From: a virus
IMG/VR virus record: IMGVR_UViG_3300045988_121676
Coordinates: 49,569-113,568 of that record
Length of the DNA: 64,000 nt
Reading direction: 5' to 3' (one strand)
Position numbers and translations under genes: made by a program
In this document: piece after piece, positions 7,861 to 41,533 of the stretch
Numbering within the stretch: position 1 is the stretch's first letter
How the letters are laid out: each line of letters opens with the position of its first letter
Notes under the pieces: generated by a model
Database searches by the model: none
What the model was told of the DNA's origin: nothing
Seen by the model: only the letters and a program-made list of their open reading frames with translations

Positions 7861-8760
7861 ATGGATAAAGTTTCTGTTTTTGAAAGTTCGGATTTTGGAG
7901 AGCTTAGAATTATTGTAGATCCAAAAGGAGATGTTTGGTTTGTGGCGTCAGATGTGGCTAAATCTCTTGGATATATAAATGCTAAAGATGCGGTAAAAAG
8001 ACATGTAGATGATGATGATTCTATGCTTTTGCAAGTATCTGATAATCAATGGGGCGTAAAACGATCTATATTGAAAACCAGATATATAGATAGTATAAGA
8101 ATAATTAATGAATCTGGTTTATATTCTCTTATATTATCTTCAAAATTAGAGTCTGCTAAGAGATTTAAGAAATGGGTAACATCTGAGGTTCTTCCTTCTA
8201 TTCGTAAAACAGGAGAATACAAAACAAGTTCAGGCGGCAAGGGAATTTTGGTTCCTGACTTTTCTAATCCAGCAGATGCGGCAAGGGCATGGGCTGATCA
8301 GTATGAAGCTGCTCAGAGAGCTATAGCTGAAAAGTCGCAGGCAGAGGCAGAGAAGCAACAAGCCTTGAAAACAATAGAAGAGCATAAACCTGATGTGGAA
8401 TTTGCCGAGTCTTTTAGGAAAGTAGACCATAATAATATGTGGTTGATTCGTGATATTGCTAAAAAGTTAGAACAGAATGGTGTTATTATCGCCGAAAAGA
8501 ATCTTCGATCATTTCTTGAAGAAGCTAAGTTTATGTTTAGAAACGGTCTTGGAAAATGGGAACTATATAGCAATGTTGTAGCTAAAGGATATGGAGTATA
8601 TAGGTCTTATTTTGTTGATAAATATTCTGGTGAAAGAGTTAATCAACAAACTATCTACATGACAGGATCTGGATACGAAGTGACCCTCAATGGCATAAAA
8701 GGAAAACTCAAAAATGTATTTTTAAAATATGGTAAAATTCTACTTGCTTTATGCAGATAG
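7861..8760 (+). CDS. Bro-N domain / KilA-C phage antirepressor family protein
   Basis: N-terminal FGELRIIVDPKGDVWFVASDVAKSLGY is a Bro-N signature; C-terminal ANT/KilA-C-like region. Confidence 0.75.
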   Translation: MDKVSVFESSDFGELRIIVDPKGDVWFVASDVAKSLGYINAKDAVKRHVDDDDSMLLQVSDNQWGVKRSILKTRYIDSIRIINESGLYSLILSSKLESAKRFKKWVTSEVLPSIRKTGEYKTSSGGKGILVPDFSNPADAARAWADQYEAAQRAIAEKSQAEAEKQQALKTIEEHKPDVEFAESFRKVDHNNMWLIRDIAKKLEQNGVIIAEKNLRSFLEEAKFMFRNGLGKWELYSNVVAKGYGVYRSYFVDKYSGERVNQQTIYMTGSGYEVTLNGIKGKLKNVFLKYGKILLALCR

Positions 8761-9577
8761 TCTTTGATCTTGTTATTCCTTTTGTCGGTTAATGACCTTA
8801 TTTGTTTTGAAATCTGTTTATTGTCTTTTAACTTAGATTTTAAGAATGCTAACCTTTTGTTATAATATTGGTTAATAGACTTTAGTGGTCTACCATTGAT
8901 GATAAAACAAGAACCGGTGTTTGAAACACAAGATGCTAAATTATCCAATCCTATGTCGATGCCAAGATAGTTCCCATTATCGGACATAAGATTCTTTTCC
9001 TTCTTATTGTAAACTATTTCAAGAACAATATACCCATTCTTAGGAATGAATCTAAGTTGTTGAATATTTTGCTTGTTAGTTCTTGTTGTAAAGGAAAACT
9101 GTTTTGGTAACTTAACAATGCCTTGTTTTATCCATTTTTGAGAAAAAGCATTTGTTGCAAAAACAGCAGGAAACAAACCACCCTTGTTGAGATACCTTGG
9201 CATTCTTACTTCCTCAGAATACTCACCTCTATTCTTTTTATTAAAGAGATTGAAGAAAGATTTAAAGTTTCTATCAACCATCATCAATACTTGTTGAGCA
9301 ACCGGTGCTGGTAAAGCACCGGTTGCTCAACATCATTTTCTGTTCTTAACTTCTTTTCAAGAGAATAGTAGTTTAGGTACTTATACTTTACAGTATTATC
9401 ATCCTTGTATTGAAAATAATACTGTCTAACAACATATAACCCTTTATTGTATAAGTTTTTACACTTATGCAATAGATCATAAAGTTCATTGTAATAAACA
9501 GAACTTGGTTTGATCGTATGTTGTTCGACTAATCTCATGACACAAATATAGAAATTATTATTTATATATGAAAACAA
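8655..9577 (-). pseudogene. tnpB: decayed TnpB (IS605 OrfB) remnant: N-terminal HTH-like part (9284..9577) plus frameshifted middle part with RuvC-I (8655..9287); C-terminal half absent
   Basis: MRLVEQH..KNLYNKGLYVVRQ and IDIGLDNLA..INQYYNKR..DYLHKAS align to the intact TnpB at 22525..23736; homology stops where the bro gene ends (~8760). Confidence 0.7.
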
Positions 9578-9681
9578 ATTGGCGTATTTGTGGTGTAAAG
9601 TTGTATATAATTACCTAAAGATGTTAAAAATTGGCTCGAATCTTTACCCAAGATCTGAACCTATTTTTTTTCAATACCAGG

Positions 9682-10226: not shown

Positions 10227-10429
10227 TGGAAACATTAATCTTAGATGTACCTGTATTTTCCGGTAAGATTATTTCTCCTATCTGGATTAAAGCCGTAAGA
10301 GATTTTCAATCCAAATCGAAGACAGAAAGAGACTCGTATTGTTTGATTTGTGGATGTACAGGAGGGTGTAACTTGTGCGATGATATAAGTAAATATAGGA
10401 TTTCAGAACAATTAAAATATTACAAATAA
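10199..10429 (+). CDS. hypothetical small Cys-rich protein (76 aa; CLICGCTGGCNLC)
   Basis: ORF whose stop overlaps the start of the downstream Tad2-like gene. Confidence 0.35.
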   Translation: MLYEYFAKIMETLILDVPVFSGKIISPIWIKAVRDFQSKSKTERDSYCLICGCTGGCNLCDDISKYRISEQLKYYK

Positions 10430-11160
10430 TGGAATTAAAAGATTCAGTCAGGGTAATGACTAAAGAAGAGTTCGAATCAGCAATCAACGAAGATATTAAA
10501 TTCGTTGAAGGAATTAAGCATTTTTTTAAACATGATGATGCTACGAGGGTAATGGAACACGTAAAGTCCGTGTTAGAGGCATCAGTAGACTACCACTACC
10601 CGAATCATCCTGAACCTGAAGCAGAACCTGGAGACATGGGAGAGGTTTCTGATGGATACCATACTTTCAATGAATTGTATCGGTACCGCATGTTGTATAA
10701 TGCCGCCTTCTTTAATCTATTAGCCAGAAACGGACAGGTTGAAGTTTGCAAATCAAGGAGACACAGCGATGGAGAAAAATGCTTCGGTTCTGATGATTGG
10801 TTTATTGTGATGGCGATCCTACCTACCGGTCAGGTATCTAATCACTATGAAAGCAAATACTGGGATTTGTTTGATGTTCCTGAAAGAGAAACCGCTTTCG
10901 AATACGATGGCCATACACCAAATGAAGCCTCCGACAGACTTGAAAAGTATCTCAAACTGCCTCGTCATGGCATGACATTCGAACAGGCTTTAGAACGGCT
11001 TAAATTAGGTCGTAAGATAAAAAGAATCGATTGGGGTAAAAAGTATATCTGTATGTTTGACGTAAATATATTGATGATAGATACAGGTCAAAAAGTAGCA
11101 TCAAATTGGAATCCAACCGAACATGATATTATGTCTAATGACTGGGAGATTGCGGGATGA
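10429..11160 (+). CDS. DUF2829 / Tad2-like (Thoeris anti-defence 2 family) domain protein with an unknown N-terminal domain
   Basis: C-terminal MTFEQALERLKLGRKIKRIDWGKK...WNPTEHDIMSNDWEI matches the DUF2829 pattern (F.EAL..LK.GKK..R..W ... W.P...D....DWEI), recognised from memory. Confidence 0.55.
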   Translation: MELKDSVRVMTKEEFESAINEDIKFVEGIKHFFKHDDATRVMEHVKSVLEASVDYHYPNHPEPEAEPGDMGEVSDGYHTFNELYRYRMLYNAAFFNLLARNGQVEVCKSRRHSDGEKCFGSDDWFIVMAILPTGQVSNHYESKYWDLFDVPERETAFEYDGHTPNEASDRLEKYLKLPRHGMTFEQALERLKLGRKIKRIDWGKKYICMFDVNILMIDTGQKVASNWNPTEHDIMSNDWEIAG

Positions 11161-11451
11161 GTTTGTATATCCGAAATAACATTAAAACAATATAATTTTA
11201 TTATAAGGTTTTAATGTACCATAAATGGTCCGGATATTAGCCTAAGCCTTGAAACGAAGGCTACGTTATTTAAGAATAGATAGTTACCTACGGATGTTTA
11301 CCCAAGTCTGTAGCTCTAAGGTAAGTGATTAAACAGTTCTGGTATTCAGGAACGGTGTTGCTTACTAAAAACCTTAAATAACATTGGCGATGGGTACTAA
11401 CAGAGTTTTACTCTGACTTATGTTGAATAAACATTAAAAACGTTTGTAGAT
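11161..11451 (+). ncRNA. candidate IscB omegaRNA (guide expected at the 5' end, scaffold up to the iscB ATG)
   Basis: 291-nt ORF-free, stem-rich interval filling the gap between the Tad2-like stop and the iscB ATG, where IscB omegaRNAs are encoded. Confidence 0.5.
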
Positions 11452-12672
11452 ATGGTGTACGTACAAGACATAAATGGTAAACCTTTGATGCCCACAACAA
11501 GGCATGGTAAGGTAAGACGACTGCTTAAAGACAAAAAGGCAGTCGTTGTAAACCTATGTCCGTTTACCATCAAATTAATGTACGTTACATCTGATTACAA
11601 ACAGGAAATTGTTTTAGGCGTTGATGCTGGAACTAAACATGTTGGTCTATCAGCAACGACGAAAAGCAAAGAACTTTACAGCAGTGAAGTAATTCTTAGA
11701 AATGATATCGTAGATCTTTTGTCTACCAGAAGAGAGCTACGGAAAGCAAGACGGAACAGGTTAAGATATAGAAAACCTCGTTTTGATAACAGAGTAAAAA
11801 GCAAGCGTCCAGGATGGATAGCACCTTCGGTGAAATACAAAGTAGACGCCCATATTCGTGTTGTTGAAAATGTTTGCTCTATATTACCAATATCTCGTAT
11901 TGTTATTGAAGTAGCTCAATTCGATACTCAAAAGATTAAGAATCCTGAAATATTAGGTAAAGAATACCAGGAAGGTGATCAACTTGAGTTTTGGAACACA
12001 AGGGAGTATGTTTTAGCAAGAGATGGACATAAATGTCAGTATTGTAAAGGAAAGTCAAAAGATTCTATACTGAATGTTCATCATATTGAGTCTCGAAAAA
12101 CCGGAGGGGATTCCCCTTCTAATCTTATAACTTTATGTGAAACCTGTCATAAGGAATACCATAAAGGTAATATAGATTTAAAGATCAGAAGAGGCAAGTC
12201 GCTTCGCGACGCAGCCGTAATGGGAATTATGAAATGGAGGTTGTATGAAGAGTTAAAATCCAGATACGACAGAGTTTTTATGACGTTTGGTTACATTACG
12301 AAACATAATCGGATTAAATATGGGATTGAAAAATCCCATACATCCGACGCGTTTGTCATTTCTAAGAATATTAATGCGAAACGAATCGAACGTCAATATT
12401 TAAAACGTTTAATTCGTAGACATAATAGACAAATACATAAAATGAAAATTTTAAAAGGGGGGAAGAAGAAAAACAATCAAGCTCCTTTTGAGGTTTTCGG
12501 TTTTAGGTTGTTTGATAAAGTGTTGTATAACAATAAAATATTCTTTGTTTATGGAAGGAGAAAATCAGGGAGTTTCAATATCAGGGATTTCAACGGAGAA
12601 AATTCAAAAGATGTTTCACGCAAAAAGTTTAAACTCATTAGAGGGAAGAGGCATCCGATTATATTAAAGTAA
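11452..12672 (+). CDS. iscB: IscB, OMEGA RNA-guided RuvC/HNH nuclease (Cas9 ancestor)
   Basis: N-terminal PLMP motif (GKPLMPT), RuvC-I GVDAGTKHVGLS, Arg-rich bridge helix RRELRKARRNRLRYRKPRFDNR, RuvC-II IVIEVAQFD, HNH CQYC..NVHHIESRKTGG..CETCH, RuvC-III HTSDAFVIS; 406 aa. Confidence 0.9.
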   Translation: MVYVQDINGKPLMPTTRHGKVRRLLKDKKAVVVNLCPFTIKLMYVTSDYKQEIVLGVDAGTKHVGLSATTKSKELYSSEVILRNDIVDLLSTRRELRKARRNRLRYRKPRFDNRVKSKRPGWIAPSVKYKVDAHIRVVENVCSILPISRIVIEVAQFDTQKIKNPEILGKEYQEGDQLEFWNTREYVLARDGHKCQYCKGKSKDSILNVHHIESRKTGGDSPSNLITLCETCHKEYHKGNIDLKIRRGKSLRDAAVMGIMKWRLYEELKSRYDRVFMTFGYITKHNRIKYGIEKSHTSDAFVISKNINAKRIERQYLKRLIRRHNRQIHKMKILKGGKKKNNQAPFEVFGFRLFDKVLYNNKIFFVYGRRKSGSFNIRDFNGENSKDVSRKKFKLIRGKRHPIILK

Positions 12673-12709
12673 ATGAACGGATTTAATAAATTTAATAGAA
12701 AAACGTATC

Positions 12710-13015
12710 ATGTATAATAAAGAAATAGTAATATGCGCGGCCATCTGGGTGCAGGACGGCAAGAAGCGTCCTCATCAGCCCACCAATATACCATCCGGCG
12801 CCGTATTTTGTGGATTGAGACATTGTTCTATCATTTCTCAGTTTGCGGCATACGGTATAGCTCATAAAAACCGCAGTGTTCAAGGATTTTTGACAAGCAA
12901 GAACCGGTTTCTGACGAGAGAAGAAGCGTCTGAGCTTGTTAAGAACAATAATCAGGAGATGGTAGTAGATAGGAATGCTATTAGAGAACAATTGTATTCA
13001 GAAGATTTATATTAA
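12710..13015 (+). CDS. hypothetical protein (101 aa)
   Basis: ORF 37 nt after the iscB stop; no stretch I can place with confidence. Confidence 0.45.
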   Translation: MYNKEIVICAAIWVQDGKKRPHQPTNIPSGAVFCGLRHCSIISQFAAYGIAHKNRSVQGFLTSKNRFLTREEASELVKNNNQEMVVDRNAIREQLYSEDLY

Positions 13016-22524: not shown

Positions 22525-23736
22525 TTAGTTAATAAATTTCTTAACCGGGTTATACCCAAACCCTGTATAGGGTGGCATTACTGCATCCCCTTTTACTTTT
22601 CTCATAATATTATAACTTCCGTTGACATCAGCGTTTAACAACACACCGTCTTTTGTCCTAAAGATTCCTCTTTTCAACCTTTTACCAACGTAAGTATTAT
22701 GATGACATACTTTCTCCAAATCATAAGAACTGCATTTTGACGTATGAGACTCATTTACTACAAAGAATCTTAGTCCTTGTCTTTCTGATTTGTACTTTAA
22801 CATTGATATAAAATCACCAAATGGGATAAAAACAAAATTCTGGTTGCTTCTCTTACCTATATTAACTTCCTGTTTCCATCCGTCATTATGACCTATTATC
22901 AATGTAGTTATATTATCTTCAACACAAATATCTATGATTTTTTTACTTGCTTTATGAAGATAATCCCTTACCTTGCTATTTCTTTTTCTTGTTAAAGACG
23001 CTAACCGTCTCGAATTTTTCTTGCCATTTACTTTCTCCAATTTACTTTGTAAAAACGAACGTTTCTTATTATAATATTGATTGATGGATTTCAACTTTCT
23101 TCCATCTATCAATACCGGTTTGTTACTAACGTTAGTAACAACAGAAGCAAGGTTATTAACACCTAAGTCTATAGACATTATCCTATTGTTGTCAACTTTT
23201 TGTTTTTTACAACAAGATTCGTAAACTAATTCAATAACATAACATCCTTGTCTTGGTATTATCCTAACTTGTTTAACACTACCTTCTTCACACTTTGTTT
23301 TTAAGGGAGGTAGTCCTTCTTTCTTAGGGAAATAAATATATTCACCTCTATGCCGTATTTGGGCATAAGAATAGTTAAAAACATTCCTGCCCTTTACCTT
23401 ATCCTTGTACTTAGGGAACTTAGGACATCCTGTGAATTTCTTGTTATCCCTTTTCCAAGCCTTAATAGAAGAGAAATAAGATTTTAGATTCTTATCTAAT
23501 CCCATCAATATCTGTTGTGAAGAAGATCCACTTAATGCCCTGAAATCAGGATTGTTTTCAGATACCATTTTCTTGTTAAGATCCGTACATCTAATCCACT
23601 TTCCTGTATTAAGGAACTCTTGTTTGATAACATAAAGTCCAGCATTATACAGGTTCTTTGACAAGAAACAGATACGATCTAACATCTTATATCTCCTATC
23701 ACCTTGGGTAATTATATGTTGTTCTACCAAATACAT
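22525..23736 (-). CDS. tnpB: TnpB (IS200/IS605-family OrfB, IS1341-like, no TnpA) RNA-guided nuclease
   Basis: 403 aa; RuvC-I IDLGVNNLA, zinc finger CSSYDLEKVCHHNTY, RuvC-III DVNGSYNIMRK; N-terminus paralogous to the 9284..9577 fragment. Confidence 0.9.
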   Translation of the reverse strand: MYLVEQHIITQGDRRYKMLDRICFLSKNLYNAGLYVIKQEFLNTGKWIRCTDLNKKMVSENNPDFRALSGSSSQQILMGLDKNLKSYFSSIKAWKRDNKKFTGCPKFPKYKDKVKGRNVFNYSYAQIRHRGEYIYFPKKEGLPPLKTKCEEGSVKQVRIIPRQGCYVIELVYESCCKKQKVDNNRIMSIDLGVNNLASVVTNVSNKPVLIDGRKLKSINQYYNKKRSFLQSKLEKVNGKKNSRRLASLTRKRNSKVRDYLHKASKKIIDICVEDNITTLIIGHNDGWKQEVNIGKRSNQNFVFIPFGDFISMLKYKSERQGLRFFVVNESHTSKCSSYDLEKVCHHNTYVGKRLKRGIFRTKDGVLLNADVNGSYNIMRKVKGDAVMPPYTGFGYNPVKKFIN

Positions 23737-40750: not shown

Positions 40751-41213
40751 CAGTTTTCTTTTCTCCCAATTTTTCTACGCCTTTTTGCAGATCGTATTTA
40801 AACACTTCAATGATTTTCGTTTCTGCAATAGACTCACAATTCCAGTCTCCTAACGTGCCCTGCATACCTTTAGTCAACACAGCCTCAGCGTCTTTCGGAT
40901 TGCCGGCCTGGACATACATATAGCATGGCGTTTTCTTTTCTTTACCTTTCTTTTCATTCAGTGTAATGTAATTCACCTTACACTTATACCAGTACTCAGC
41001 TTCTCCGTTGAAGAAGATTTCCGACACTTTAATAGGATTAATTTTTACAACCTCGAAAGATTTGTACAAATCCTTGAAGATTTCCAACGATCTTGATTCT
41101 GCCTCTGTATAAGACAAGGCATCCACTAAATACTTTTCAGTTACTTTCTTTTTTTTGCCGTTCTCGATATTATCAATCTCGGCTTTTACCGTAATTTCAA
41201 ACCAGCGATTCAT
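40743..41213 (-). CDS. hypothetical protein (156 aa)
   Basis: ORF. Confidence 0.5.
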   Translation of the reverse strand: MNRWFEITVKAEIDNIENGKKKKVTEKYLVDALSYTEAESRSLEIFKDLYKSFEVVKINPIKVSEIFFNGEAEYWYKCKVNYITLNEKKGKEKKTPCYMYVQAGNPKDAEAVLTKGMQGTLGDWNCESIAETKIIEVFKYDLQKGVEKLGEKKTDE

Positions 41214-41224
41214 TGTATTAATAT

Positions 41225-41533
41225 TTAATTAGTTGATTTCTTTCCTTTCTCTATACTGTTTTTAAATCTTTCAGAACACCACTGCAAAACGTCCATCATC
41301 ATCATCTCATTATTAGATAAGATACCTTTTATAACTAACGCCAATTGATGCTGTGACATTCGTTGGCTCATATCAAATCTTCTTTCCTCTTCATTTACTA
41401 TCGTAGCCACGAAATACTTACACCCCTCTAAGTGCGTCAGGGCTTCAATCATAGCTTCTTTTATCTCTTTTTCTTCCATTATGTTTGTTTTTTTTGGACA
41501 AAGATATGTCTTTCGATAATAAAAAAGATTCAA
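41225..41533 (-). CDS. hypothetical protein (102 aa)
   Basis: ORF. Confidence 0.45.
   Translation of the reverse strand: MNLFYYRKTYLCPKKTNIMEEKEIKEAMIEALTHLEGCKYFVATIVNEEERRFDMSQRMSQHQLALVIKGILSNNEMMMMDVLQWCSERFKNSIEKGKKSTN

Follow-up and report, generated by a model that had tools for sequence, protein, structure and literature searches.

An IscB omegaRNA upstream of a phage iscB gene and the ends of the element that carries it

What is encoded in the 291-nt gap (11161-11451) that separates the TGA of a Tad2-like gene from the ATG of an iscB gene in a viral genome, and, if it is the RNA partner of the nuclease, where do its guide and the boundary of its element lie? All positions are coordinates of the window, i.e., the whole 64,000-nt stretch analysed here (record IMGVR_UViG_3300045988_121676, positions 49,569-113,568). 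An initial annotation, made from the letters of this stretch, had proposed an ORF-free spacer between the two genes that carries a candidate omegaRNA 5' of iscB. Coordinates and ORF scan agree on the spacer: no ORF of at least 40 aa was found on the + strand within 11161-11451, and the ORF immediately upstream (10429-11160) is WDGH/Tad2-like (Pfam WDGH 4.5e-36, Tad2-like 5.6e-11).

A scan of the entire window against Rfam at the gathering threshold returned a single match, HEARO (RF02033), at 11192-11401 (+), with 107.7 bits (E=3e-21) against a HEARO cut-off of 83 bits and an alignment spanning the full length of the model (positions 1-211 of 211). In current usage HEARO is called the IscB omegaRNA (PMC10055086, PMC9755519). 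The scaffold is co-oriented with iscB and ends ~36 nt 5' of the ATG at 11452. The covariance-model search that the initial annotation had suggested thus bears out its candidate, and the full-length match, the adjoining intact co-oriented IscB and the covariation described below together support the conclusion that the interval encodes an IscB omegaRNA. It is a further member of RF02033/IscB, an RNA kind already known, and phage-borne HEARO/IscB has been published before.

The gene behind the interval is as follows:

11452-12672, + strand: iscB, 406 aa, intact (Pfam, NCBIfam and PDB matches, catalytic residues)

Its product contains the Pfam domains RRXRR (1.3e-60) and HNH (4.7e-11), scores 359 bits with the NCBIfam equivalog NF040563 (RNA-guided endonuclease IscB; cutoff 175), and matches the IscB chains of the PDB, including OgeuIscB 7UTN/7XHT, at E~1e-42. 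The PLMP motif occupies residues 11-14, the RuvC residues D58/E153/H296/D299 and the HNH residues H210/H211 are all there, and CxxC pairs are found at 195/198 and 229/232; the dead mutant of GstIscB is D58A/H209A/H210A (Meers et al., PMC10055086). The C-terminal 89 aa (residues 318-406), where a TAM-interacting domain would be expected, have no sequence match in the PDB and are conserved among homologs. An AlphaFold2 model had a mean pLDDT of 35.5, having been computed from an alignment of 18 sequences of 86-95% identity. Homologs of 406 aa number in the thousands (87-99% identity, on contigs of up to ~160 kb), a single one of them being found on 547 contigs under the name 'RRXRR protein [Bacteriophage sp.]'. 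Homologs are also present in isolated phages of Ralstonia, Staphylococcus and Clostridium, where GenBank gives them as HNH endonuclease. Bacterial relatives are 37-69% identical and have HEARO in the same position in 13 of 18 cases. An IscB of 86% identity, together with HEARO, is also encoded on a 20-kb contig of a marine assembly named 'Vibrio olivae' (L136, NZ_JBHMEP010000019.1), probably a stray phage contig, as the remaining close relatives all come from gut phages.

The extent of the element was defined by comparing 79 related IMG/VR loci (L-numbered below), among them contigs with two copies at different positions, and by blastn against csAssE-Sib (OR575929.1, 151 kb, human gut), the sole GenBank phage with nucleotide similarity, for which a literature search found no relevant paper. 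Its features are:

11167-12709, + strand: complete IscB-omegaRNA element, 1,543 bp (blastn against OR575929.1; shared unit at unrelated sites)
12673-12709, + strand: distal tail ATGAACGGATTTAATAAATTTAATAGAAAAACGTATC, 37 nt, the LE-equivalent end, conserved past the stop codon at unrelated sites
12710-12712, + strand: flanking ATG, candidate TAM, start codon of the next phage gene (12710-13015)

The DNA common to loci at unrelated sites runs from ~11167 to 12709-12713, and the conserved part opens precisely with ATATCCG (11167), with at least 12 different flanks on its upstream side; a second subtype of the element begins with ATAATCG. Relative to csAssE-Sib, window 11167 to 12706 (~12709) stands in place of 266 bp containing a small Cys-rich ORF, whose opening bases (ATGAGTTTGT) are still present in the window. 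At the other end, the tail stops just 5' of the flanking ATG, the start codon of whichever gene comes next. Two clean occupied/empty pairs without target duplication, L044/L012 and L025/L029 (empty sites GTTTGTATC^ATGAAAG and AAGGAA^ATGAAAG), display the mode of insertion: the element enters immediately 5' of ATG, with neither a target-site duplication nor terminal inverted repeats. Unoccupied versions of several sites are present both among the related loci and within the window itself.

All 12 distinct distal flanks open with ATG, and the same triplet directly follows the guide match at 14 of 14 unoccupied reference sites, the base after it never being C (P ~1e-16 to 1e-18 for ATG at flanks/unoccupied sites and nested junctions). 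The TAM is known to abut LE, that of GstIscB being TTCAT 5' of LE, or ATGAA in iscB orientation (PMC10055086), and the flanking ATG is a candidate TAM. Its enrichment could in part stem from selection for harmless insertion before start codons; however, a number of the ATGs at junctions are internal ones that are not in frame. Strong folding was obtained for either strand of the omegaRNA-side end (z -3.9 and -4.6), and no significant hairpin was found on either strand of the distal end (z +0.25 and +0.66). Nor was a Y1 (HUH) TnpA detected inside the element or among the 20 window ORFs of 117-402 aa, which is usual for iscB, given that only ~1.5% of iscB genes are tnpA-linked (PMC10055086).

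Two further stretches of the window, ~29437-29608 (-) and ~41213-41482 (-), are empty here and contain IscB elements in related phages (L019; L041, L050, L051, L062, L069 and L070), in which the small ORF of the window sites is absent. In one family of the element (L025 and L032-L036), the tail closes with ~15 nt that match the 15-17 nt left flank (guide region), resembling a guide-length duplication; the unoccupied alleles (L029 and L039) hold a single copy.

The architecture of the RNA, together with the leader that follows the scaffold, is given below, all on the + strand:

11167-11415 (3' end approximate), + strand: omegaRNA scaffold (HEARO), from RF02033, flank breakpoints, P1 covariation and folding
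11167-11173/11231-11237, + strand: helix P1, enclosing hairpins 11179-11217 and 11218-11229
11240-11244/11384-11388, + strand: long-range helix, HEARO architecture
11245-11262, + strand: P2, HEARO architecture
11265-11274/11373-11382, + strand: P3, HEARO architecture
11284-11319, + strand: P4, HEARO architecture
11321-11365, + strand: P5, HEARO architecture
11401-11415, + strand: P6, additional 3' hairpin with 2 compensatory pairs, beyond the end of the Rfam model
11420-11451, + strand: conserved leader from scaffold to iscB ATG, almost invariant in 32 sequences

In P1, ATATCCG (11167-11173) pairs with CGGATAT (11231-11237); other subtypes have ATAATCG/CGATTAT, ATAATCT/GGATTAT and ATAATTG/CGATTAT, making four sequence combinations in all, and pairing is kept at 6-7 of the 7 positions in 43 of 51 unique sequences. 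Minimum-energy folds computed separately for each subtype yield an identical 5' domain (z=-3.9), with P1 around one long and one short hairpin, and this predicted three-part domain is that of the HEARO architecture. The break in conservation behind the 12 or more flanks and the P1 helix together place the start of both scaffold and element at 11167, and not at the Tad2-like stop (11160), where the initial annotation had tentatively drawn the boundary. The position that cmscan assigns to P1 (11192) was rejected in favour of 11167 on the strength of flank breakpoints, subtype folds and P1 covariation; the misplacement, by 25 nt in the 3' direction, is due to the unusual length of the first hairpin within P1 here.

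When the HEARO helices were imposed on an alignment of 32 related sequences, standard pairs occupied 92.6% of cells, as against 36-44% with the partners slid, and 13 pairs had compensatory changes on both sides. Cells with changes on both sides numbered 93, compared with ~32 in shuffles, and 0 of 500 shuffles reached 93. The conserved secondary structure and covariation on which the earlier proposal had been made to depend are therefore present, and the two hairpins it had singled out, agcctt/aaggct and ctacgg/ctgtag, recur at 11245-11262 and 11288-11313 as stems of the HEARO model. The covariation of P6 beyond the model end accords with the remark of Meers et al. (PMC10055086) that RF02033 lacks 3' elements. 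The leader hairpin P7 (11420-11434) consists of pairs that are invariant in the 32-sequence alignment, so that covariation is uninformative about it either way. On a MAFFT alignment, RNAalifold wrongly joined the long-range helix P3 to the A/T-rich 5' region; its result was set aside, the HEARO architecture being scored instead. No signal that would explain transcription of the omegaRNA rose above background when sigma-70 promoters and terminators were scanned for, Bacteroidota-type promoters lying outside these scans.

Following published IscB work, the guide is taken to be 16 nt long. Counted back from the scaffold start, this gives:

11151-11166, + strand: predicted guide TGCGGGATGAGTTTGT, the 16 nt 5' of the scaffold start, outside the element

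The predicted guide shares its DNA with the final codons and the TGA stop of the Tad2-like gene, and the sequence of this stretch differs among insertion sites. An IscB guide lies beyond the transposon end, directly 5' of the scaffold derived from RE, and it requires transcription read through from upstream (PMC10055086); from this rule and the boundary at 11167 we infer that the guide is 11151-11166, i.e., 16 bases upstream of the earlier proposal. That proposal, the first 16 nt of the interval (gtttgtatatccgaaa, 11162-11177), was rejected, 11167-11173 being the conserved and paired 5' strand of the scaffold helix P1.

The window site is unoccupied, as GCGGGATGAGTTTGTTTGT^ATGTTC, on 55 phage contigs, and all 55 of these alleles have GTTTGTTTGT where the window, L002 and L006 have GTTTGT. 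The window guide is a version, slipped by 4 nt (GTTT), of the guide in L003, L009, L010 and L049, which reads GGATGAGTTTGTTTGT, and the csAssE-Sib allele is GGATGAGTTTGTTTGT^ATGTTC. Owing to the slip, the window guide agrees with the common unoccupied allele only at 6 TAM-proximal positions and a few scattered ones, and no further matches to it were found within the window. The guide thus probably no longer matches its natural target well, and homing of this particular copy is probably impaired by the 4-nt slip. Deletions of 4, 6, 10 and ~25 nt recur in the guide region beside the omegaRNA end (window 11158-11166, L007, L062 and L070), and such deletions could reflect replication slippage or repair after weak self-cleavage.

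Across the loci occupied at the window site, the distal junction is constant, whereas the omegaRNA-side junction lies at no fewer than 8 positions between 10010 and 11166, the nested junctions removing part or all of the WDGH/Tad2-like (anti-Thoeris-like) gene together with its upstream neighbours (deletions relative to window 10010-11166 in L005, L007, L008, L013, L014, L016, L018 and L020-L023). The same nested pattern recurs at a second locus, ~41.2-41.6 kb, which is unoccupied in the window. Nearly every nested junction is directly followed by ATG in the undeleted sequence, for which reason random deletion was rejected as their origin; the three junctions that lack ATG appear to reflect small deletions that arose secondarily within the guide region. 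L011 and L020 are chimeric, with a 5' end of subtype 2 and a 3' end of subtype 1, which shows that copies recombine, and L032 carries two co-oriented copies 2.7 kb apart. The simplest reading is that the element inserted independently at several ATG sites and that copies then recombined, deleting the DNA between them, and transposase-mediated adjacent deletion may be an alternative source of the nested junctions. Among decayed relatives, L048, L049, L072 and L074 have premature stops. In L019 (~1000-1234), an omegaRNA of a third subtype (P1 ATAACCC/GGGTTAT) stands alone, not followed by an iscB; L015 (~2740-2790) has a rearranged omegaRNA whose 5' part is duplicated in inverted orientation, and L017 has an iscB without omegaRNA.

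Elsewhere in the window, a full-length TnpB gene (402 aa, 22525-23736 (-); Pfam OrfB_IS605 and Cas12f1-like TNB, 182 bits with NCBIfam guided_TnpB at a cutoff of 100) means that the phage carries two kinds of OMEGA nuclease. Part of another TnpB, distributed over two ORFs (8655-9577 (-); OrfB_IS605 1.4e-18), falls within 8736-9615. This segment of 880 bp takes the place of ~3.2 kb in csAssE-Sib, and among the genes replaced is one annotated there as spike protein/glycoprotein.

Taken together, 11167-12709 is very probably a non-autonomous IS200/IS605-type OMEGA element of a ~140-150 kb human-gut phage, for which we propose a cycle of homing or retention. Read-through from the co-oriented Tad2-like gene would give an RNA that, upon processing, bears the predicted guide (11151-11166) at its 5' end and a scaffold that binds IscB. 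The resulting complex would cut guide-matching DNA followed by ATG, i.e., the unoccupied allele of a co-infecting related phage or the joint left by excision, and recombinational repair from the occupied genome would then copy the element in.

How far this cycle applies to the window copy is less certain, and it is quite conceivable, if somewhat less than probable, that RNA and IscB are real but the copy is a stranded passenger without a cleavable target, inherited vertically until it decays. The 4-nt slip of its guide against all 55 unoccupied alleles would be expected of such a passenger, as would the decayed relatives L048, L049, L072, L074, L017, L015 and L019; yet the window copy retains an undamaged ORF, its catalytic residues and all helices, and IscB binding is reported to tolerate guide mismatches (Meers et al., PMC10055086). 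The slipped flank is moreover shared by L002 and L006, which marks the slipped guide as an inherited variant. That the element serves as a phage weapon or exclusion system, killing rivals with the unoccupied allele rather than mainly copying itself, is unlikely: its natural target is indeed the genome of a related phage and the homing-endonuclease literature describes both outcomes (PMC13565253), but the occupation of so many orthologous sites, with sharp ends common to them, speaks for copying and not for killing alone, the two roles not being mutually exclusive. The view that the interval is just the structured 5' UTR or the promoter region belonging to a gene for an HNH homing endonuclease, devoid of any guide function, agrees with the GenBank annotation of phage homologs as simply 'HNH endonuclease' and is disfavoured to the point of being scarcely credible in view of the full-length HEARO match, the covariation, the IscB equivalog and the coincidence of the element boundary with P1.

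A broader conjecture, offered tentatively and rather less likely to be right than wrong, is that the IscB cassettes of this gut-phage lineage behave as RNA-guided homing elements that are reprogrammed by junction deletions and drive the loss of accessory genes. The ATG motif would place the cassettes directly before start codons, and recombination of co-oriented copies, or a transposase joining the omegaRNA end to another ATG, would repeatedly delete the intervening DNA. Each deletion would supply a new guide, again with an ATG-flanked target in naive phages. If this is true, the elements reprogram themselves and spread accessory-gene loss, including that of the Tad2-like anti-defence gene, through phage populations.

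What is worth following is how the element behaves at the population level within this lineage. Occupied and unoccupied versions of many sites, multi-copy genomes, chimeras and nested deletions within one lineage form a natural dataset, which suggests that such elements reshape the accessory gene content of phages and would permit co-infection tests of the homing model of OMEGA nucleases in phages. There is also a practical gain, namely the exact predicted position of the guide and a candidate target motif for a compact 406-aa phage IscB, as well as a correction to annotation, genomes usually saying only 'HNH endonuclease' and leaving the RNA unmarked.

The RNA described here has the same helices, including the long-range one, and the same position, strand and variable 5' flank as HEARO RF02033 and the OgeuIscB omegaRNA (7UTN, 7XHT). 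In contrast with the HEARO model, its first hairpin inside P1 is much longer, its long-range helix contains one U-U mismatch that is invariant in this element family, and an extra covarying 3' hairpin (P6) follows past the model end. The element also recalls ISGst5 IscB of Geobacillus stearothermophilus (PMC10055086), which is likewise non-autonomous, with the omegaRNA at RE and a co-oriented upstream gene; the motif adjacent to LE ends in CAT in both (TTCAT in ISGst5, and ATG in iscB orientation here), and the catalytic numbering is nearly the same, D58, H209/H210 in GstIscB compared with D58, H210/H211 here. However, ISGst5 resides in a bacterial chromosome, whereas the present element sits in a phage genome; the conserved motif comprises five bases for ISGst5 and only ATG plus 'not C' here, and unlike in ISGst5 neither an LE hairpin nor a cognate TnpA was found in distal-end folding and among the window ORFs.

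IscB with HEARO RNA on viral contigs was likewise reported by Goltsman et al. 2022 (PMC9755519), who assigned more than 16% of the fragments that encode HEARO to viruses or prophages. While that study was carried out without site-level analysis, ends, empty sites, motif and multiple and chimeric copies are described here for one lineage of gut phages. A further parallel is offered by the free-standing Seg/Mob homing endonucleases of T4, likewise intergenic nuclease cassettes, flanked by conserved phage genes, whose presumed target is co-infecting relatives without the cassette. In contrast with Seg/Mob, recognition here is predicted to be carried out by an RNA guide copied from the flank rather than by the protein, and the cassette has sharp, transposon-like ends.
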